Source of the DNA: Escherichia coli
GTDB taxonomy: Bacteria > Pseudomonadota > Gammaproteobacteria > Enterobacterales > Enterobacteriaceae
Assembly (NCBI RefSeq): GCF_013315695.1
Contig: NZ_CP054353.1
DNA: 64,000 nucleotides
Reading direction: 5' to 3' (one strand)
Positions within the stretch are counted from its first letter, which is position 1. Every line of letters starts with the position of its first letter. Below the pieces are notes generated by a model, which was not told the DNA's origin, did no database searches, and was given only the letters and a program-made list of their open reading frames with translations. The position numbers and the translations under genes are program-made. Of this stretch, positions 1 through 29,762 are shown one piece after another.

Positions 1-1011
1 AATGGTGTTGATGAATTTGGTTTTTCATATGCCAAAATGCGAACAAAAGATAATATGACAGGACAATCATCTGCACTTAGTCTGCATACATGCAGTGCAT
101 CCCGGGGGATTGATGTTAGTGGCGATAATAAGTATTGCACTGTTTCATGCAGGGTTAAAGCTCCTGATGGTCTTCGTTGTCGTTTGCGTTTTGAAAAATA
201 CGATGGGTCGGTTTATACATTTTTAGGAGATGCTTATTTAACTTTCGGAACTCTGATAATAGAAAAAACTGGCGGAGCAGCCAATAGAATAGCAGCTACT
301 GCAACTAAAGATCCGGTTACAGGGTGGATTTTCTATGAGGCAACTATAGAAGCTGTTGAAGGTGAAACCTTAATTGGCGCAATGATTCAGTATGCGCCGA
401 AAAAAGGTGGTATAACTGAAGCGGGAGATTATATTTACCTTGCAACACCACAATTTGAAAACGGCGGATGTGCTTCATCTTTTGTTATTACGACAACTGC
501 ACCCGCAACCCGCTCCAGTGATATGGTGACGATCCCAACTGAAAATAATATCTATAATAGACCGCTTACGTGTCTTGTCGAGGTTAATAGAAATTGGGGC
601 GATATTCCTCCTAATGTAGCACCGCGTATTTTTGATTTTTCTGGTGTGCCACCTATTGAGTCAATTACATACGCTTTTAACACAACTGAGAAATATTACG
701 GTCAGCTTTATATGCAAACTTATAAAGCGTCGACAAGTACTTACGTTTCTAGTGTGTTTGCTGGTCGAGCTGATGTTCGAAAATTCATTGGTGGTTTTAA
801 TATTTATTCTGATGGTACTAAACGAGTAGTTTCTAACGGTGAGGCTACTAAAACTATGAAAACGGAGTGGACGGGCGTAAAAACACGGACCTTTATTCGA
901 ATTGGAGGTCAAGCCACATCGGGAACTCGTCATCTATTCGGCCATTTGAGAAATCTTCGTCTCTGGCATAAAGAATTAACTGATGCGCAAATGGGGGAGA
1001 GTATTAAATGA
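1..1011 (+). CDS. Phage tail-fibre / receptor-binding protein, C-terminal part with LamG-like (concanavalin-like) domain; 5' end beyond window
   Basis: The reading frame is open from position 1 (first ATG at 37). C-terminus ...GGQATSGTRHLFGHLRNLRLWHKELTDAQM resembles LamG-fold ends of phage fibre proteins. Stop overlaps the next ORF start (ATGA). Confidence 0.45.
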   Translation, partial: NGVDEFGFSYAKMRTKDNMTGQSSALSLHTCSASRGIDVSGDNKYCTVSCRVKAPDGLRCRLRFEKYDGSVYTFLGDAYLTFGTLIIEKTGGAANRIAATATKDPVTGWIFYEATIEAVEGETLIGAMIQYAPKKGGITEAGDYIYLATPQFENGGCASSFVITTTAPATRSSDMVTIPTENNIYNRPLTCLVEVNRNWGDIPPNVAPRIFDFSGVPPIESITYAFNTTEKYYGQLYMQTYKASTSTYVSSVFAGRADVRKFIGGFNIYSDGTKRVVSNGEATKTMKTEWTGVKTRTFIRIGGQATSGTRHLFGHLRNLRLWHKELTDAQMGESIK

Positions 1012-1289
1012 AAGATTTAACACTCAAATTTGCAGACAGGGCCGACTTTTCGGCCTTTATGGAGAGCATTGGCTATTATGATGACGAGTCGATGCAGGAT
1101 GATATTCTTATTGACGTGATAGGTAATGTGTACAAAGAAACCGGAGAACTTACTGAAGATGGCGAGCCGGTATGTGTTAAGGAGGACGGATATTTTGTAA
1201 ATGTGCGCATCATTAATGATTCGCAAATATCGTCATTATTCGATGAATACGTGGTTGCTGTTGAGCATCAACTCCGTAGCTGGATGTGA
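1008..1289 (+). CDS. Hypothetical small prophage protein (93 aa), translationally coupled to the upstream fibre gene
   Basis: ORF with a 4-nt overlap with the preceding stop, in the same operon-like array. No recognisable motif. Confidence 0.35.
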   Translation: MKDLTLKFADRADFSAFMESIGYYDDESMQDDILIDVIGNVYKETGELTEDGEPVCVKEDGYFVNVRIINDSQISSLFDEYVVAVEHQLRSWM

Positions 1290-1298
1290 GGAAGAAAA

Positions 1299-2003
1299 AT
1301 GGCTACATCGACAGTAATTCCTGATGACATCAAAACGCTAAAGGGAGATGTCAGTAAGGCAAAGGAAGATATTTCCTCAATTAACGTAAAAGTATCAACG
1401 CTTCAGACTGATATGGACAGTGCAAAGCAGGATATCAGTACCAGATACACAAAAACAGAAGTGGATAATAAGCTGAAAAACAAAGTGGAAGTGAACGATC
1501 TGGAAAGTGGTCGTTATGGCGGAGATTTTTACCCGCTGACTGGCCGTGAAGCGTTTTATTTATGGGGATTGGGCACAACTACAGCGGCGGCAAATCTTTA
1601 TCTTAATCCTGACCCTGCAATTTCGTCTGTGCTGCGGTCAACATCGTCTATCCGCTATAAACATTCAGTAGAGACGATAGATTCAGAGCACGCCGATCTC
1701 ATTTTCAGGATGCGCCCTGTGTGGTACAGGTCGCAATGCGAAAATGACAGGCGTGACTGGGGATTCTATGGATTGATTGCCGAGGAAGTAGGAGAAATTG
1801 CCCCTCAGTTTGTTCACTGGCGACCAGCCAACGAAGATGATGCACCGGAAACCATTTCCAGCAATGGCCTTGTTGCCGAAGGTGTAATGTACGAACGTCT
1901 GGTTGTTCCACTGATTCACCATATCCAGAAACTGACTGAAAGAGTTGATGAACTTGAGTCAGAATTGAAGTTGTTATCAACTTCCCAAAGCGATATCGGA
2001 TAA
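1299..2003 (+). CDS. Short tail-fibre-like protein with C-terminal peptidase-S74-type intramolecular chaperone domain
   Basis: N-terminal coiled-coil-like segment. C-terminal region has an S..R.K motif (SSIRYK) followed by LIFRMRPVWY...GFYGLIAEEVGEIAPQFV...YERLVVPLIHHIQKL, the typical signature of self-cleaving chaperone domains of phage fibres/endosialidases. Confidence 0.55.
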   Translation: MATSTVIPDDIKTLKGDVSKAKEDISSINVKVSTLQTDMDSAKQDISTRYTKTEVDNKLKNKVEVNDLESGRYGGDFYPLTGREAFYLWGLGTTTAAANLYLNPDPAISSVLRSTSSIRYKHSVETIDSEHADLIFRMRPVWYRSQCENDRRDWGFYGLIAEEVGEIAPQFVHWRPANEDDAPETISSNGLVAEGVMYERLVVPLIHHIQKLTERVDELESELKLLSTSQSDIG

Positions 2004-2013
2004 AGGAGGAGTA

Positions 2014-2307
2014 ATGGATATAACACCTTTTCTTCATGCGCTTTGTGCTGTGGCTGCGCAGGTAATGATTGGTCTTTTTGCCGGAAACTGGGTTTACGGG
2101 GCGATAGCCGGTTGTACGTTCTTCATTGCGCGTGAACACACCCAGGCAGAATATCGCTGGATTGAAATGTTCGGGCATGGCAAGTGGATTAACATGCCGT
2201 GGTGGGGCGGTTTTGATCCGCGTGTTTGGGATGTGGCAAGCCTGATAGATTTTGCTGTGCCGGTGGTGGCGTGTCTGCTGGTCTGGCTGTTGGTTAATCG
2301 TGGGTGA
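2014..2307 (+). CDS. Hypothetical small membrane protein (97 aa, about 3 predicted TM helices) of prophage origin
   Basis: Hydrophobic segments (LHALCAVAAQVMIGLFAGNWVYGAIAGCTFFIA; FAVPVVACLLVWLLV). Lies directly after the fibre genes. Confidence 0.35.
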   Translation: MDITPFLHALCAVAAQVMIGLFAGNWVYGAIAGCTFFIAREHTQAEYRWIEMFGHGKWINMPWWGGFDPRVWDVASLIDFAVPVVACLLVWLLVNRG

Positions 2308-2317
2308 AAAAAGGTGA

Positions 2318-2446
2318 GCTGTATATGCAACGGAGGAAGAAACCCCGTTGCTGGAAGCCTGGAAAAAGTATCGGGTGTTGCTGAACCGTGTTGATACATC
2401 AACTGCACCTGATATTGAGTGGCCTACGAACCCTGTCAGGGAGTAA
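2318..2446 (+). pseudogene. Tail fibre assembly protein (Tfa) C-terminal fragment
   Basis: Frame translation ...[38 protein letters not shown] matches the conserved Tfa C-terminus. No N-terminal part upstream, and an in-frame stop at 2315-2317. Confidence 0.55.
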
Positions 2447-2500
2447 TCATTGGGATTATGCCGCAGCACGTCTTAAGCAAGAACGTGCTGCGGTTGGATG

Positions 2501-3169
2501 CTATTTTTTCCCTGAAGCGGAAAACATTACTACAGTACCTTGAACCTTGGTTTTAACATTCTCGAAATGCTCTGAGAGTATATGTGTTAAGCCTTCTTCG
2601 GAATCTTTTGTGTTTGAAAAGATGCCTTTCTGATTGTAAATGCGCATCAGTTTTTGACCGAAGCTATTGTGCACAACTCCATCGCCAAGAATTGTGGCTC
2701 CGTATAGAGTTCCATCGTCAGTTAAGGCCTGCGCCGCATTGCGTATTACACAGCTTTTTGTAGATATATTTCCAGGCAGGCAGTGAAGAAGGTAAAACAT
2801 GGAAATGGAATCAAATTGACCATGTAACGCCGCGGGATAAGGTTCAAAAACATCATGGCTAATTTTATGTTTAATTTTTGATTCCCCAGCCCTTGTAGAT
2901 GCCGCGTTCAGGCTAGCTTCGTTCAAATCCATTAAAGATATCAGACTACTCTCAGGTACGTGAGTAAGGTAAAACCCAGTTCCAACACCAATATCCAGAT
3001 GGTTGTTACCTAAATGTTCCAGAAAGTGTGGAAGAAGGTGTTCCTTTGTAGGACATCCCCATGCAAGCCGATTTGATACTCCCAAAACCCACCAGTCATA
3101 AAGCTTTAGGGTAAGTGGTGTGTAAATTTTAGCCCCATCATCTGTGTTTTTTTTCATTAATTTCACCAT
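2501..3169 (-). CDS. ybcY: SAM-dependent methyltransferase (YbcY-like, prophage-borne)
   Basis: 222-aa ORF with class-I methyltransferase motif I (LDIGVGTGFY). Lies between two tfa fragments, as ybcY does in K-12 DLP12. The ORF is intact here. Confidence 0.6.
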   Translation of the reverse strand: MVKLMKKNTDDGAKIYTPLTLKLYDWWVLGVSNRLAWGCPTKEHLLPHFLEHLGNNHLDIGVGTGFYLTHVPESSLISLMDLNEASLNAASTRAGESKIKHKISHDVFEPYPAALHGQFDSISMFYLLHCLPGNISTKSCVIRNAAQALTDDGTLYGATILGDGVVHNSFGQKLMRIYNQKGIFSNTKDSEEGLTHILSEHFENVKTKVQGTVVMFSASGKK

Positions 3170-3225
3170 GTTATAGTTTTATTTGTGAATTAAATCAATT
3201 ATGGCGATGAATTACAAGGGGTTAA

Positions 3226-3524
3226 ATGCTGCCGCAGCATAGCGATATTGAAATAGCCTGGTATGCTTCGATACAGCAGGAGCCGAATGGCTGGAAGACC
3301 GTCACCACACAGTTCTACATCCAGGAATTCAGTGAGTATATTGCGCCACTGCAGGATGCTGGGAAATCGCAACGGAGGAAGAAAGATCGTTGCTGGAGGC
3401 ATGGAATAAATATCGGGTATTGTTGAATCATGTTGATACATCAGTAGCTCTGGGTATGAAGCTGTTTGTAACTCATGTTACAGTAACAGCCATTACTATC
3501 TCGAAGGTGCAAAATGTATATTGA
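3226..3524 (+). pseudogene. tfaX: Tail fibre assembly protein fragment, frameshifted (tfaX-like)
   Basis: ORF 3226-3426 contains Tfa-like ...[10 protein letters not shown]... and then shifts frame. The next frame reads [27 protein letters not shown]... and then diverges from the Tfa consensus. Confidence 0.5.
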
Positions 3525-3651
3525 TTTGATATTTTATAAATTTACTTCGAATCTGGCACGTCAACTTTTGATTAAAGTAATATCAGTTTTCGGCGAAAAA
3601 AGGACCGTGTACATGAGACGATTTCATACAAGAATAACAAAAATATGAATA

Positions 3652-3688
3652 TGCTCCCAATGCAATATATGTTTTGCATTGGGAGCAA
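3652..3688 (-). terminator. Hairpin terminator downstream of the hydrolase gene
   Basis: Perfect 14-bp inverted repeat TGCTCCCAATGCAA-N9-TTGCATTGGGAGCA with A/T-rich flanks, just 3' of the minus-strand CDS ending at 3711. Confidence 0.45.
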
Positions 3689-3710
3689 ATAGCGGAATAT
3701 TTTGAAATTA

Positions 3711-5192
3711 TTATATTTCTGCTTCAGAATTTCCTGGGCAGTATATATTTTCTATTTTTTGTGGAGTGATCAGGTGATGTACAACTGCTTTATCTACACA
3801 TAAATTAACTCCGGTGAGAGCTAATGTATGCCCATCACCATTTATTGTTAGTAACGGGCTGGAAAATTTCTCTGCCATCTTACGGGCATTAATCCAGGGC
3901 GTTGTTGGGTCGTATTTGTGTGCTACAAACAGTAAACCAGAGGGCAGAACAGTATTTTTCAGGCGAGTTTTGTTCAGGTCGCTATGTATTGGCCATAATT
4001 CACAAAAATCAGGTGAATCGGAACGTCCATTGTCAAAGTTAATAGCCGGGAAGGCATTCGCAAGAGCGTCTTTTCGGGATTTTCGCTCTTCTGGTGTTAA
4101 TTGCTCATCCCCCTGATCTACACAGAGGATTACCCCCGAAGCATCGCTTGACTCTTCTGAGGCTATCTGAGCACTGAGCGCAGTTTCAATTTCATTACTG
4201 ACAATCCCCTGAGAGAACTGGCGTATGGCAGTTGCAAGGGTTGGCCATGATGAACGCCATAGCAGAAGGTCTGTTGTTAATGATATGAGTTCATCTGAAG
4301 ATATATTTTCTCCCTTACTGTCTAATAAAGGTTTGTGATGTAATTTTGATAATAGCTCATGGAACTGAGTTATTGCCTTATCTCTGTCTGAAGAAAGCGG
4401 GCAACTTTTTGTACGCGCACACCAGGATGCAAAGCGATCAAACGTTTCCTGATAACTCTGTGCCTGTTTGAGTTGCCATGTGAAGTTGTCCTCCAGGTCA
4501 TCGATATCGACGACTCCATCAAGAACGATAGATCTTACGTTGTAGGGAAAACGTTCTGCATATAAGGCTGCAATTTGAGTTCCATACGAATACGCCACGG
4601 CTGTCAGTTGTTTATCCCCCAAGGCTTGCCTAATACGATCAATATCGTATACAGCCTCGTTAGAGCCGATATGGCGAATGACTTCGGCTCCGGTATTATG
4701 GATACAGGCATTAATTTTATTTAATACTTGTTGCTTTTCGGTTATGTTTTCCTGAGTCTCTGTATCTGATTGCCGGCAGTTTATTGTCGGAGTGGACTGT
4801 CCGACGCCTCGAGGATCAAATCCAATAATATCCCATGACTCACGAAGATTTGTGACTGGCCAGTCAAAGTTAATATAAGGATTTATGCCTGGTAACCCGG
4901 GACCACCACTTATTATCAGGATACTTCCTTTATGCTTGCTTTTTGCCGGCAATTTTGTCAACGCTAGTTTGACTTGTGATTTTTTTTCATAAGAAGCATC
5001 TCCGCCTGTGTCTGTATATTTTAATGGAACAGACAAATAACCACATAGTAAGTCAGGAGACGGTTTTTCCTCACCAAACCAGTGGTTGAATTGACTGGCC
5101 ATACAGGATTGCCACTGTATCTGCTGGGCAGATACGGTTACTGGTAGAAGTAACGTTAAAACAACTTTGAAATGAGTAATTATTTTTCGCAT
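3711..5192 (-). CDS. Secreted alpha/beta-fold hydrolase (peptidase S33 / TAP-like family)
   Basis: 493-aa ORF with N-terminal signal-peptide-like segment (MRKIITHFKVVLTLLLPVTVSAQQ), oxyanion-hole region GFDPRGVGQS and nucleophile elbow AYSYGTQ (GxSxG). Gene is AT-rich and occupies the position of appY in K-12. Confidence 0.7.
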   Translation of the reverse strand: MRKIITHFKVVLTLLLPVTVSAQQIQWQSCMASQFNHWFGEEKPSPDLLCGYLSVPLKYTDTGGDASYEKKSQVKLALTKLPAKSKHKGSILIISGGPGLPGINPYINFDWPVTNLRESWDIIGFDPRGVGQSTPTINCRQSDTETQENITEKQQVLNKINACIHNTGAEVIRHIGSNEAVYDIDRIRQALGDKQLTAVAYSYGTQIAALYAERFPYNVRSIVLDGVVDIDDLEDNFTWQLKQAQSYQETFDRFASWCARTKSCPLSSDRDKAITQFHELLSKLHHKPLLDSKGENISSDELISLTTDLLLWRSSWPTLATAIRQFSQGIVSNEIETALSAQIASEESSDASGVILCVDQGDEQLTPEERKSRKDALANAFPAINFDNGRSDSPDFCELWPIHSDLNKTRLKNTVLPSGLLFVAHKYDPTTPWINARKMAEKFSSPLLTINGDGHTLALTGVNLCVDKAVVHHLITPQKIENIYCPGNSEAEI

Positions 5193-5322
5193 TGTGTCTC
5201 TGAATATCGGAATAAAGATAAGATTTGAATATATTGAGGTCTTGTGTTGCGGTAAGAGATTACACGTTATGACATAGGTTAAATGCTTACAAAATTAGTG
5301 GATATTGTCTACTTGTAACTGT

Positions 5323-5360
5323 AAACAAATTCCCCGGGGTTATACAATACCACCGGGGAG
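5323..5360 (-). terminator. Rho-independent terminator of ompT
   Basis: Hairpin CCCCGG...CCGGGG followed on the minus strand by TTTGTTT, immediately 3' of the ompT stop. Confidence 0.45.
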
Positions 5361-5378
5361 AAAATCTGGTTAACTTCG

Positions 5379-6332
5379 TTAAAAGGTGTACTTAAGACCA
5401 GCAGTAGTGATGAAGTTATAGTTTTCTATGCCTGCACCATTTTTGCTGTAGTCTGAAGTGTTATCATTGTGATCATAAAGTGAAGTATTACCTTTTTTAT
5501 TCGTAACCCGATTCCATGCGCCTTCAACATAAACTTTTGCGTTAGGTGTTACGTAATAACCTGCATTGACTGCAACAGAATAGTAATTTTGGTCTTTGAC
5601 TTTACTGCGATAAGTGATTCTTTTTCCTGGGTCATAGTGCTCATCGTTATCAGATGCTTCCACCCAGCCGCTGTATTTAAATGTGCCACCTAGCTCAAAA
5701 TCTTCATAACGATAACTTCCAGTCAAGCCAATGTAGGGCATTTTAAAACGTTGTTTGTAGCCGATTGCTCTTTCTCCATTCGGGAAGGAGCCGATATCAT
5801 CTCTGAATCCCTCCTCAGAACTGTAGATATAGGAACCACCTCTGGCTGTAAAGCTATAACGGCTTTCCTGATATCCGGCCATGAGTCCCAGGCGGTAATT
5901 GGGTTCGTTGAGGAGCCAGCCTTTGATATTCAGATCAAATTCGTTGGCATAATTGAGTTGTGTATCAGGGTGCCTACTTTCATCTGTCCAGGTTCCGGGG
6001 TTACTGGAATCCATCCAGTCCTGATCGACCATATTGCCACCTCGGCTGCCGAGAGTAGTCCAGCCCGCAGCCCCAATAGATATCTGGGGCATCAAATCCC
6101 AATTAATTGCACCTTTAATAATTGCAGCGTTATTGAATTTCCAGTCGAGTTGACTGACTTTTCGGCCTCCTTCTTCAGCTAGATAAACGCGCTCTTTTGT
6201 TTTTCCGCTCAGAGTTCCAAGACTAATGTCCGCATTTATGTTGTCAGGAGTAAACGATATAGTCTCGGTAGAAGCAAAAGAGCTGATCGCAATAGGGGTT
6301 GTCAGGACTATTCCCAGAAGTTTCGCCCGCAT
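5379..6332 (-). CDS. ompT: Outer membrane protease OmpT (omptin)
   Basis: 317-aa ORF MRAKLLGIVLTTPIAISSFA...AGLKYTF, recognised as OmpT precursor. Confidence 0.95.
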   Translation of the reverse strand: MRAKLLGIVLTTPIAISSFASTETISFTPDNINADISLGTLSGKTKERVYLAEEGGRKVSQLDWKFNNAAIIKGAINWDLMPQISIGAAGWTTLGSRGGNMVDQDWMDSSNPGTWTDESRHPDTQLNYANEFDLNIKGWLLNEPNYRLGLMAGYQESRYSFTARGGSYIYSSEEGFRDDIGSFPNGERAIGYKQRFKMPYIGLTGSYRYEDFELGGTFKYSGWVEASDNDEHYDPGKRITYRSKVKDQNYYSVAVNAGYYVTPNAKVYVEGAWNRVTNKKGNTSLYDHNDNTSDYSKNGAGIENYNFITTAGLKYTF

Positions 6333-6754
6333 AAAAGTTCTCCATTCAATCGTTTTAATGATTGAATATGTATTTTTTATATCTAACTTAATGAGTCAAT
6401 TACATATTGCTCCACTGTTTATATTTTGTTTAGTATTGAATGATTATCACAATGCGCTATCTGTTTTTGGTTTAATTATCTGTTATTGTTTTATGTTGCG
6501 GTTTTACTGTGTGGTTTTTTATGCTTTTGTGGTGTTTTTATCTATTTAAGCGCCATGCCTTTAGAGGCATATAAGCGAAAATAGCATGAGGTTTATCCTC
6601 AATTGCTATGTTTTTTGGTACAAAAAAGAGGGACAAAACTGAGACACATAAGGCCTCACAATGGCTTGCAAGGCTTTACATGTTTTGAGGTAGTGGGACG
6701 TGTGAGCGCAGAGATGGCGCGGTAAGTTGTTGACTTAAAATGTCGTTCTAGGAA

Positions 6755-6799
6755 CTTCTAAGTCGTGGGCCGCAGGTTCGAATCCTGCAGGGCGCGCCA
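6755..6799 (+). other. attR: 45-nt copy of the 3' end of tRNA-Arg(UCU) argU (anticodon loop through CCA), not a full tRNA
   Basis: CTTCTAAGTCGTGGGCCGCAGGTTCGAATCCTGCAGGGCGCGCCA: T-arm GCAGG/TTCGAAT/CCTGC, acceptor 3' strand and CCA present, but no matching 5' half upstream. Confidence 0.7.
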
Positions 6800-6844
6800 T
6801 TTCTTCTTCATTTATCCCCGTCTTATCCGTTTCCGCTTTGCCCT

Positions 6845-7606
6845 TCACCACATCACTTTTTGTCGCTGTTTGGCGAGATAATTCAACGGTGTCAGGCCGT
6901 AAAACGCCTTAAAAACAGAGATAAAGTACGACGTGCTGCTATAGCCACATAATTGCGCTACCTGAGTGATATTTTTGTTATCCATCAATAACATCTGTAC
7001 GGCGTAACGCATACGACACTCTGTGACAATCTGGCTATAGCTGGTATTTTCGTTTTTTAATTTCTTTTTGAGCAGGCTGGGGCTTAAACATAGCGAACTG
7101 GCGACAATTCGCAGATTCCAGTAATGCTGAATATCGCTTTGAATAATGCGGCAGACGCTGTCGCGGACGCTGCTGCGTAAGATATACATCAGTAGGGCAA
7201 TAAACCGCGATTGCTCAAGAAAGTTAGACAATACGGTAAAAAGCAATGCGCGCGTCAACTCCGCTTCGCAGGGTTTGCTGGGTTGCTGCTTGCTGTGGTT
7301 GGCGGCTAGCCGGAACACTTCCGGTGTACGGCTATGACAAGCGATAACCGGGGTTGCCAGCCGCGACCAGGGCTTTATACAGGTTAAGTTCTTATTTAAA
7401 AACAACAGATAATCGTTGATGATGTTACGGTTGATGTGGGTGATTAATACGTGATTTAACGTTGAGAGTTCAATGACGTTATTGTTGCACGCGAAGGCGG
7501 CCAGGTAGTTTTTCGGAAGGGTAAACGTAGCATGGTTATTGACGCTTACCTCTACCTCTTTTTCGGTCAGGATCACCACGCAAGGTTCACTGCTGCTCAA
7601 TTGCAT
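6845..7606 (-). CDS. envY: AraC-family transcriptional regulator EnvY
   Basis: 253-aa ORF with C-terminal AraC HTH region (...ITQVAQLCGYSSTSYFISVFKAFYGLTPLNY...). Confidence 0.85.
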   Translation of the reverse strand: MQLSSSEPCVVILTEKEVEVSVNNHATFTLPKNYLAAFACNNNVIELSTLNHVLITHINRNIINDYLLFLNKNLTCIKPWSRLATPVIACHSRTPEVFRLAANHSKQQPSKPCEAELTRALLFTVLSNFLEQSRFIALLMYILRSSVRDSVCRIIQSDIQHYWNLRIVASSLCLSPSLLKKKLKNENTSYSQIVTECRMRYAVQMLLMDNKNITQVAQLCGYSSTSYFISVFKAFYGLTPLNYLAKQRQKVMW

Positions 7607-7788
7607 TTCGCACTCCTCAGATATCAGAAACTCCGCTCAAAGGATCTATGCTTCCTGCATGAGTGATCGGCCCGTTCGCCGATAACGATCTTCTTTCTTT
7701 AGCACGCTTTTTAGCAATTAATCTTGATGGAATTCTGACGAGAGCGAAAGAGGTAAGCCAGGTCGTACCCGACTTACCTGGAGGAGAT

Positions 7789-8679
7789 TTAATACTCGAG
7801 AATGCCGTGCGCGACGGGCAAATAGCGCAGAGAGAAATAGAGCGTGTCTTTACCGCAAGAGGAACGTTTCGCTAACAGCGAGGCAATTTCTGCGTCCGGT
7901 TTCGGTTTCGCTGTAAAGGTTTTGCCTTTGCCGGCGACAAACAGTTCATAAACAATGCCGCTTGCTGGGGCGGAGCTTTGGCAATCGGCGCTGGCCTGTA
8001 GATAACGTTCACGCTGTTCAGCGGTCAGTTTATCCACGCCGCTGCCATCCTGTACCCAGACATTAACGCCGGTTGCTTTAACGTGTTCCAGCAGTTGGCG
8101 ATAGCCATCGGGCGACATGTTTCCGGCGAAAAAACTACTGATATAAACCGGTTTTGCTGAAACATCGCTAATCAACCGCTGCGCGTTGTTTAACCATGTT
8201 AGCAAAGGCTGACGGGCGGCTTCGCTGCGCCAGTTCAGGTCGTCAATTTCCGCGCTGATGTACCAGCCATCCGGCGTTACGCCAGGTACGGCGCTCCATA
8301 ATCTGGCTTGCTGGAGATCGGCAGCCAGCAGGCGGTTAAGATAGCTTTCCAGCGCTGCAGACGACTGTTTCTGGTGCATAAAAAATTCCGGATCGGCATT
8401 CAGCCCGACAATCAGCTTCAGGCCAGCCTGTTGCGCAGCTGCGGCACGCTTAAACAATAACGCGCGCTGTTCTGGCTGGGTGAATGCATCGCCGTAACGA
8501 GTCCATTGCAAAACCAGGGTATCGAAGCCTTGCAAACGTAACTGACTCATCAGCCCCTGCCACTGGGTATCGGTAACCTGACTATCACGGTTTTGTGGTT
8601 GCCAGATAATACCTTTCATCGCAAAGGAAAAAGGGCTGACCAAAAGCAGTGTCAGCAATACGAAAATGAACTTACGCAT
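7789..8679 (-). CDS. ybcH: YbcH (DUF4434 periplasmic protein; third gene of the nfrBA-ybcH operon)
   Basis: 296-aa ORF with signal peptide, directly abutting the nfrA stop. Confidence 0.8.
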   Translation of the reverse strand: MRKFIFVLLTLLLVSPFSFAMKGIIWQPQNRDSQVTDTQWQGLMSQLRLQGFDTLVLQWTRYGDAFTQPEQRALLFKRAAAAQQAGLKLIVGLNADPEFFMHQKQSSAALESYLNRLLAADLQQARLWSAVPGVTPDGWYISAEIDDLNWRSEAARQPLLTWLNNAQRLISDVSAKPVYISSFFAGNMSPDGYRQLLEHVKATGVNVWVQDGSGVDKLTAEQRERYLQASADCQSSAPASGIVYELFVAGKGKTFTAKPKPDAEIASLLAKRSSCGKDTLYFSLRYLPVAHGILEY

Positions 8680-28004: not shown

Positions 28005-29225
28005 TCAGTACGCCATATTCAGTTTCCCATAGTGGAACATAACTCCCAGTTTAAAGCGTTCCCGGTTTCGGTATCCCCTGGCCTTTATCCTCAGCAGTCT
28101 GATCTTGCTGTTCAGCGCCTCCGCATTTCCATTCGAGACGCGATGACGCATTGCATTCAGTATTCCGTATAACCGTTTTTTAATGGTTTTCGCTGCGTTT
28201 TTCATCATCGGCACATCACATTCAGACGCCAGCGATATCCACTGCAACCAGTCATTCCTGCGTTCTGTGCTCCAGGGGCGATCCCAGATATTTTTTGCCA
28301 GCTCTTTCAGTGTCCAGCACTGGCTTGTCTGTTGCATCTGTTCCCGCAACCACATCAGCTTTTCCTGCCGGGACTCAGTCATCCATTTGTCGCTGTACTG
28401 CCACAGGAAGCGGGTACCTTTGGCCTGACGACGACTTTCAACAGGGAGGTGCGGATGTTCATTCTGGCGGGTTTTATCAACCACTTCGCCCAGTTGCTTC
28501 GCCACATGGAAGCGATCGAAGGCGATTTTCTCGACCGCATTGGGTAAATGGATACGCGCTGCTCTTATATAGCCCGCATTCATGTCCATCGACAGTGTTT
28601 TGATGGCCAACAACTGACTGTCAGTAAGCGAACGGAGATAGCTGGCAAGACTCTCTGTGCCACGATCATCGGTTAATGCCAGTGCCCGCCCGTCGCGATC
28701 AGATACCACGGTTATATACCTATGCCCTTTTTTAAAGGCGACTTCGTCTACATTCATATGACGCACTGATAAAGGCTTTTTAATCCGCGACAGGCCTCGC
28801 TTAACCGCGCGGGTCATGATGCCGTCAACGGCATTCCAGCTAAGTTTAAGTTGTTTTCTGACCGCATCAACGGTGCTGATTTTAAGCCATGAGAGCACGA
28901 ACGATTCGAACAGCAGAGTGTACCGACTGCCGGAACCTGCCCACGGTACAGGCAGAGTCTGGCAGCCATGCTCCGGGCACATAACGCGGGGAACATCGGC
29001 TTCTACTAATGTCATGAACTGGCAGGTATCAAGGTGGCGCCATTTACGATGTCGGTGATCGTGAACAGAACAGGATTTCCTGCAGGTCGGACAGGTTAAC
29101 TGAGTATTTTCAGCAATTCCGACTGTAACAGTAACGGAACCTGCATTTTCATCGAGGGTAAGGGATTTAACCTGCCATGGTGCAGTCAGGTTAAGGATAT
29201 GGGCATAGAGGGATTTTTCGTCCAT
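28005..29225 (-). CDS. ISL3-family transposase
   Basis: 406 aa. N-terminal Cys/His-rich zinc-finger-like region (CPTCRKSCSVHDHRHRKWRHLD...CPEHGC) followed by a DDE-type core, typical of IS204/IS1001/IS1096/IS1165 transposases. Confidence 0.85.
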   Translation of the reverse strand: MDEKSLYAHILNLTAPWQVKSLTLDENAGSVTVTVGIAENTQLTCPTCRKSCSVHDHRHRKWRHLDTCQFMTLVEADVPRVMCPEHGCQTLPVPWAGSGSRYTLLFESFVLSWLKISTVDAVRKQLKLSWNAVDGIMTRAVKRGLSRIKKPLSVRHMNVDEVAFKKGHRYITVVSDRDGRALALTDDRGTESLASYLRSLTDSQLLAIKTLSMDMNAGYIRAARIHLPNAVEKIAFDRFHVAKQLGEVVDKTRQNEHPHLPVESRRQAKGTRFLWQYSDKWMTESRQEKLMWLREQMQQTSQCWTLKELAKNIWDRPWSTERRNDWLQWISLASECDVPMMKNAAKTIKKRLYGILNAMRHRVSNGNAEALNSKIRLLRIKARGYRNRERFKLGVMFHYGKLNMAY

Positions 29226-29243
29226 ATAATTTCATTCTGAAGC

Positions 29244-29762
29244 TTACTTTAAACTGATATTATTATTTTTTGCCCACTTTCTTAATCTTCCATTAGCGTT
29301 GGCGTAAGGCGAAGATGTGTTAAATGAGATCATTCTCCCCATCGTCCATTTTGTGTACCATGGTCTTCCATACAAAATATCATCGGTACGATCATTAATA
29401 AGGTTCACAATCTCATTTTTTACAGTCTGAAGTTCAGCTACTAACAACTCATAACTTAACTCACTGTAATCTGAGTAAAATTTTTGAGCAAGAAGGCCAA
29501 GCTGATTCCATTTATAGCCAGTTTCCGGAAAATCGACAGGCAGACCTTTAGCATCAGAAGCGATCCACTTTACAACAAGAGCATTCCATCCAAGCAGATA
29601 CGAAACGAGATCACGAACACTCATCTCCGTTCCTTTGGCGTGTCCGTCCATTGATTTATCTGAAGTAATTTCTGGTGGGATTGTGTTGAGGTAACTAATT
29701 AATTTACTAAAATTTTTATCAATAGCTAAAAGCAGTTCAGCTTTTGTTTGCGGCACACTCAT
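29244..29762 (-). CDS. ClbS-like / DUF1706 family protein (passenger gene inside the IS)
   Basis: 172-aa ORF with features recalled for the colibactin self-resistance protein ClbS family (GHAKGT, VSYLLGW, YGRPWYTKWTMGRMISFNTSSPY...NISLK C-terminus). Located between the transposase 5' end and the right IR. Confidence 0.6.
   Translation of the reverse strand: MSVPQTKAELLLAIDKNFSKLISYLNTIPPEITSDKSMDGHAKGTEMSVRDLVSYLLGWNALVVKWIASDAKGLPVDFPETGYKWNQLGLLAQKFYSDYSELSYELLVAELQTVKNEIVNLINDRTDDILYGRPWYTKWTMGRMISFNTSSPYANANGRLRKWAKNNNISLK

Follow-up and report, generated by a model that had tools for sequence, protein, structure and literature searches.

A partial copy of argU, the 77-nt gene for tRNA-Arg(UCU), lies at positions 6755-6799 of the window (the whole 64-kb stretch of Escherichia coli DNA under analysis) and is almost certainly the attR mark of a DLP12-family lambdoid prophage integrated in argU. 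On the plus strand the fragment reads CTTCTAAGTCGTGGGCCGCAGGTTCGAATCCTGCAGGGCGCGCCA. It spans 45 nt, from the first base of the anticodon loop to CCA, and matches argU positions 33-77 at 45/45 positions. The exact repeat shared with argU also takes in the following TT and measures 47 bp (6755-6801). To the left of this repeat, 6754 is mismatched to argU and GA at 6752-6753 matches again; the P arm upstream of 6752 showed no similarity to the 5′ half of argU, leaving the fragment without a 5′ half. The initial annotation had described an anticodon loop-to-CCA piece of tRNA-Arg(UCU) of just this length, lacking the 5′ half, and that description was borne out as written. When the 64-kb window was searched for 38 nt of the core at a tolerance of 3 mismatches, a single copy was returned, compared with 0 in 100 shuffles. 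Features of the site and its surroundings are collected in Table 1.

Table 1. Features of the attR region, with window coordinates
Feature	Position	Strand	Basis
Prophage tail-fibre genes, end of the late operon, continuing upstream of the window	1..2307	+	RefSeq annotation of near-identical genomes
Class I SAM-dependent methyltransferase; cargo, intact here but a pseudogene (ybcY) in K-12	2501..3169	-	Pfam methyltransferase domains; found at this place in both K-12 and 2G7b
Alpha/beta hydrolase, 493 aa; cargo	3711..5192	-	Pfam Abhydrolase_1, E = 3e-33; annotated in AF3 and 2G7b
ompT, omptin outer-membrane protease; cargo gene nearest attR	5379..6332	-	Pfam Omptin, E = 2.8e-130; 99% identical to K-12 OmpT
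P arm of attP, of phage origin; forms the inner side of attR	6631..6754	+	Matches Turner and 2G7b exactly as far as the core
CTTCTAA, heptamer of the anticodon loop; inferred region of strand exchange (overlap)	6755..6761	+	Identity block begins here
Displaced 3′ fragment of argU, tRNA-Arg(UCU)	6755..6799	+	45/45 identity; no tRNA called
47-bp att core, exact direct repeat common to attL, attR, attP and attB	6755..6801	+	Exact 47-mer in several genomes and phages
Chromosomal flank, 43-bp spacer and then envY (6845-7606)	6802..7606	-	Pfam AraC-type HTH; argU abuts the same sequence in empty-site genomes

The attL end and the integrase gene lie outside the window, and their arrangement was deduced from two near-identical genomes, neither of which is an exact match. 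MSB1_4I (NZ_LR898874.1, L010) has 0 mismatches over window positions 1-8259 and 4 over all 64 kb, and AF3 (NZ_OZ547117.1, L002) has 7 over 1-28700 and 17 over all 64 kb. In AF3, ARAGORN called an intact 77-nt argU with the same sequence as K-12 argU (L002 22252-22328). This gene, in direct orientation with the fragment, is 46,024 bp upstream of it, and the corresponding core-to-core distance in MSB1_4I is 36,729 bp. Downstream of argU, after a gap of 15 bp, comes the integrase gene intD on the opposite strand; in AF3 it is followed by full sets of lambdoid early, lysis, head, and tail genes. IntD matched the Pfam Phage_integrase family with an E value of 5.7e-47 and is 99% identical to K-12 IntD. 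Each end of the prophage carries exactly one att core, and no further copies were found between attL and attR in either AF3 or MSB1_4I. Two marks of a tDNA fragment are thus present, namely, same-strand identity to a tRNA gene of which the replicon has an intact copy at another place and a rebuilt tRNA gene beside a tyrosine integrase gene. Phages Turner and 2G7b contain the exact 47-mer, which also stands at attL of AF3 and MSB1_4I and at each end of K-12 DLP12; comparison with argU and with attL and attR of DLP12 was the check that the initial annotation had proposed, and the core proved identical at both DLP12 ends.

The two prophages differ in their early regions. The 46,024-bp AF3 prophage has an IS1 inside an early DUF2303 gene, and the 36,729-bp MSB1_4I prophage lacks the immunity, replication, and Q region beside an IS1. 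Judged from these sequences, the difference looks like an IS1-mediated deletion that would have grounded the MSB1_4I prophage.

To reconstruct the unoccupied chromosomal site, a virtual attB was assembled from the fimZ-argU side of AF3 and window positions 6800-7350. Of 5426 complete E. coli genomes, 2511 matched at least 80% of this fimZ-argU-envY sequence. Because the search joined pieces up to about 1 kb apart, genomes whose site is strictly empty number at most 2511. Among the best matches listed were single pieces with 100% identity, as in SMS-3-5, with fimZ, tRNA-Arg, and envY annotated beneath. A virtual attP of 1672 bp, made by joining window positions 5900-6801 to the int side of attL, was recovered as one piece (ompT-arm-core-int) from four isolated phages, 2G7b, ev243, Turner, and Kati, at identities of 99.0 to 99.6%. 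Records of PhiR phages (from ECOR13, K-12 MG1655, and E. coli C hosts) each contained one side of the attP junction, stopping or starting at about the core. In a four-way alignment, attR (window and K-12) and attP (Turner and 2G7b) were the same through 6801; beyond that position, the sequence is TCTTCTTCATTTAT on the envY side versus ACAATTCAATCA on the int side. The attR junction of the window, in which the P arm and the core meet the envY flank, was matched over at least 80% of its length in 1612 of the 5426 genomes. An unoccupied attB and a free attP, both expected of a tDNA fragment, thus exist with exactly the predicted junctions. The initial annotation had read the fragment as the footprint of tRNA-targeted integration, and the presence of attL, attR, attB, and attP in public sequences supports this reading.

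The arrangement can be explained as follows. A lambdoid phage of the DLP12 family integrated through its tyrosine integrase, IntD, by recombination between attP and argU, which serves as attB. The phage attP brings its own copy of the 3′ part of argU, the 47-bp core. At attL, beside intD, argU is restored, its 5′ part being chromosomal and its 3′ part that of the phage, and the old 3′ part is stranded at attR as a nonfunctional fragment between the P arm, on the ompT side, and envY. Regeneration of the target gene together with a displaced fragment is a general principle of such integration (PMC4383910). In the window, everything to the left of the core is phage DNA, and the sequence from 6802 onward is chromosome. 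The fragment itself would have no function beyond that of a recombination substrate for excision.

Strand exchange probably takes place in the anticodon loop, at 6755-6761. This placement is based on the alignment: the identity block starts there, as expected for tRNA att sites of class "A", which are centred on the anticodon (PMC4383910), and the thrW core of the Sf/P22 type likewise begins at or beside the anticodon loop of its gene. If the crossover is so placed, 6762-6801 would be original chromosomal DNA, and the physical junction would be at the left end of the block and not at 6799. With identical cores at attL and attR, the boundary is ambiguous over 6755-6801, and 6799 is probably an outer limit. 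RefSeq annotates "cryptic prophage DLP12" in K-12 at 564755..586056, starting with the attL core and stopping one base short of the attR core, at the equivalent of window position 6754. The right boundary of about 6799 proposed in the initial annotation therefore held to within 47 bp, but the junction itself is likely to be at the left end of that interval, where K-12 DLP12 also ends. For annotation, the value of the site is that it fixes the right prophage boundary within 47 bp and places the resumption of the core genome at envY.

Genes on the two sides of the fragment are consistent with this boundary. In phages 2G7b and ev243, ompT adjoins attP, and the order in 2G7b is methyltransferase, tail-fibre-assembly scraps, alpha/beta hydrolase, ompT, attP, and int. 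Since cargo, attP, and int are contiguous in 2G7b, ompT and the hydrolase lie inside the mobile element. The same claim had been made from the window alone; the 2G7b gene order and the attP found in four phages support it. The protease OmpT, an extraintestinal virulence marker, is thus encoded by phage cargo and not by a core gene, as are the hydrolase and the methyltransferase. Because isolated phages carry the ompT-attP-int block, infectious virions could in principle transfer ompT from strain to strain. The 493-aa hydrolase has an Abhydrolase_1 domain and a TAP-like C-terminal domain. Its slot is occupied by appY in K-12 and some other genomes, and some genomes have neither gene.

On the other side, the empty fimZ-argU-envY sites indicate that envY is the first gene outside the insertion. 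The initial annotation had called envY the first core gene, and both the empty sites and the divergence of attP after 6801 agree with this, but the statement is bound to lineage: in strain NC101, no envY is annotated between ompT and ybcH. Past envY, RefSeq annotation of the near-identical genomes gives, in order, ybcH, nfrA, an nfrB-type gene ("glycosyl transferase family protein"), the cus operon, and the enterobactin cluster. Farther along, at about 28005-29762 and between ybdK and hokE, the same annotations place an ISL3-like ISEc53 transposase gene and an adjacent gene of the ClbS/DfsB family, a colibactin self-protection family.

Other genomes carry reduced or repeated elements at argU. 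The B2 strain NC101 (L007 2788-6431) keeps only a 3.4-kb remnant made up of argU, a truncated int, a tail-fibre-assembly scrap, the methyltransferase gene, ompT, and a decayed core, after which comes ybcH. In Ecol_448 (L006 4820-9615), a full ompT phage stands in tandem with an NC101-type remnant (int′, tfa′, methyltransferase, ompT), giving two copies of ompT. These two genomes show that the argU site has been used repeatedly. They also lend some support to a different history of the right end, in which attR, ompT, and the hydrolase belong to an older resident remnant at argU and the tail-fibre genes come from a different, later phage, through tandem integration or recombination. Under such a history, ompT would be outside the unit that moves today. 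Pseudogene scraps of the DinI and tail-fibre-assembly families at 3245-3530, between the methyltransferase and hydrolase genes, suggest past rearrangements in the cargo region and would fit as well. We nevertheless regard this history as very unlikely. The block of methyltransferase, hydrolase, ompT, attP, and int is contiguous in isolated phages, with 99.0 to 99.6% identity across the junction, and neither AF3 nor MSB1_4I has an internal att core. Further, the attR core in the NC101 and Ecol_448 remnants has accumulated 4 to 5 substitutions, whereas the core in the window has 0.

A single prophage whose right end is the argU fragment can be compared directly with DLP12 of K-12. The two share an identical 47-bp core at both ends, an identical P arm beside the core, IntD and OmpT proteins that are each 99% identical, the flanks fimZ-argU and envY, and a right-end cargo order that includes the methyltransferase gene (ybcY) and ompT. 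Unlike DLP12, which is a defective 21.3-kb prophage without head and tail genes, the element measures 36.7 to 46.0 kb in the near-identical genomes and has complete lambda-like morphogenesis genes, and it carries the 493-aa alpha/beta hydrolase gene where DLP12 has appY. The element is therefore best called a DLP12-family lambdoid prophage, near phages 2G7b and ev243, and not DLP12 itself: its argU target and its IntD are those of the family, but it does not have the defective 21-kb content. In K-12 gene lists the fragment is called pauD, a name that does not appear in the K-12 RefSeq feature table.

Much of this agrees with published descriptions. The DLP12 attR has been given as 47 bp and argU-like (PMC6379469), ompT has been treated as a DLP12 gene (PMC2408971), and PMC10057817, citing Lindsey et al. 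(1989), places DLP12 in argU. The attachment site at argU and the prophage location of ompT are thus already documented, and the feature is real and ordinary. Pathogenicity islands at argU, PAI-IHE3034-argU and PAI-S88-argU, 38 to 50 kb in size, have been listed with ompT (PMC7545054; Desvaux et al. 2020); these are described as islands of B2 neonatal-meningitis strains and are likened to the element here by description only.

Among free phages, 2G7b (Nesevirus), ev243, Turner, and Kati are the closest relatives at the attachment site, with the predicted attP at 99.0 to 99.6% and, in 2G7b, the same cargo order. This likeness covers the attP and cargo region; in contrast to the element in the window, these are free, circularly permuted virion genomes in which the core is flanked by int and not by envY. 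A literature search on phages 2G7b and ev243 found no papers. The thrW system of P22, SfI, SfII, SfV, and SfX is laid out in the same way, with cargo followed by attP, int, and xis. The identity between IntD and the SfI integrase is 74%, and the SfI/P22-type thrW core is 46 bp (versus 47 bp), starts at or beside the anticodon loop, and ends at CCA. The SfI/P22-type phages differ in their target, which is thrW (tRNA-Thr), and in their cargo, which consists of the gtrABC O-antigen modification genes in the place of ompT.

A different view of the site is prompted by the GenBank record of Escherichia phage Turner, in which an 84-nt "tRNA-Pro" is annotated at PP925837.1 6391-6474 on a sequence identical to window positions 6716-6799. 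These positions might form a genuine but unusual tRNA or tRNA-like gene, in which a phage-derived 5′ part pairs with the argU-derived 3′ part and which would be present in virions at attP and in the lysogen at attR. The P-arm bases 6712-6721 are able to pair with 6793-6802, and the Rfam tRNA model (RF00005) gave 24.8 bits (E = 0.02) at 6705-6788. This score is carried by a genuine T arm, but it falls below the gathering score of 29, and the alignment requires a 29-nt insertion. The initial annotation had held that no complete tRNA gene lies here, and ARAGORN agreed, returning no tRNA anywhere in the 64-kb window by default and none in 6500-7000 when introns were permitted or the -ps option was set. 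A cloverleaf was drawn only once the threshold was lowered to 80%, as a tRNA-Leu(tag) whose acceptor stem has two G.G mismatches, whose D stem is 3 bp long, and whose anticodon stem is mispaired. The isotype therefore differs between the two tools (Pro versus Leu). No complete cloverleaf, as required of a functional tRNA gene, was obtained at the site at standard thresholds. Folding of 6710-6802 gave a z score of -1.69, with 13 of 200 shuffles folding as well; this is not significant, and the region was dropped as a candidate tRNA-like fold. In the old remnants of NC101 and Ecol_448, some of the 4 to 5 core substitutions break the T stem and the acceptor stem and are uncompensated.

We consider a tRNA gene at 6716-6799 highly improbable on these results. 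The "tRNA-Pro" of the Turner record is probably an annotation artefact, given the defective model obtained at the 80% threshold only, the ordinary folding energy, and the uncompensated substitutions in old remnants. The same artefact will probably recur wherever this att site is annotated automatically, and tRNAscan-SE may return a low-scoring call at the site and not none. There is likewise little reason to expect that the 84-nt segment, composed of the core-proximal part of the P arm and the 3′ half of argU, is a tRNA-like element with a role of its own, such as a tRNA mimic that is expressed or a structure in the DNA that the integrase uses. If it were, the 10-bp pairing between 6712-6721 and 6793-6802 would be selected and not fortuitous. 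Finally, the fragment could be thought of as a tRNA pseudogene in decay, or as argU sequence duplicated locally by chance, with no link to site-specific integration. This view has in its favor the bare fact of a partial tRNA gene and nothing more. The perfect 47-bp identity, in direct orientation, exactly at the ends of a block of phage genes speaks against it, and the precise empty site and precise attP junction in public sequences refute it.

The P arm, which forms the phage side of attR, would bind Int and IHF. A possible IHF site at a small hairpin (6723-6735) was rejected: it matches YAANNNNTTGATW with one mismatch, and 64 such matches occur in the window versus 56 expected, which is the level of chance. 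The 10-mer AAAATGTCGT occurs once in the P arm (6737-6746) and once in the P′ arm on the int side (L005 8977-8986), 139 bp apart. This pair is a weak candidate for an arm-type integrase site, as an exact 10-mer pair is estimated to arise by chance in about 7% of 371-bp stretches.

In some genomes, the sequence corresponding to window positions 6630-6754 is the sole piece retained. The distal part of the P arm (6631-6713) is identical at 79/83 positions to the attP arm of the thrW-targeting Shigella phage SfI and is a probable location of accessory binding sites. The core-proximal 41 bp (6714-6754) are identical to SfI at only 22/41 positions and are specific to this phage group, and the att cores of the two are identical at 29/47 positions. 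The attP thus looks modular, with a shared distal arm joined to a swapped, target-specific part and with distal-arm identity far above that of the proximal 41 bp, the core, or the integrase (74%).
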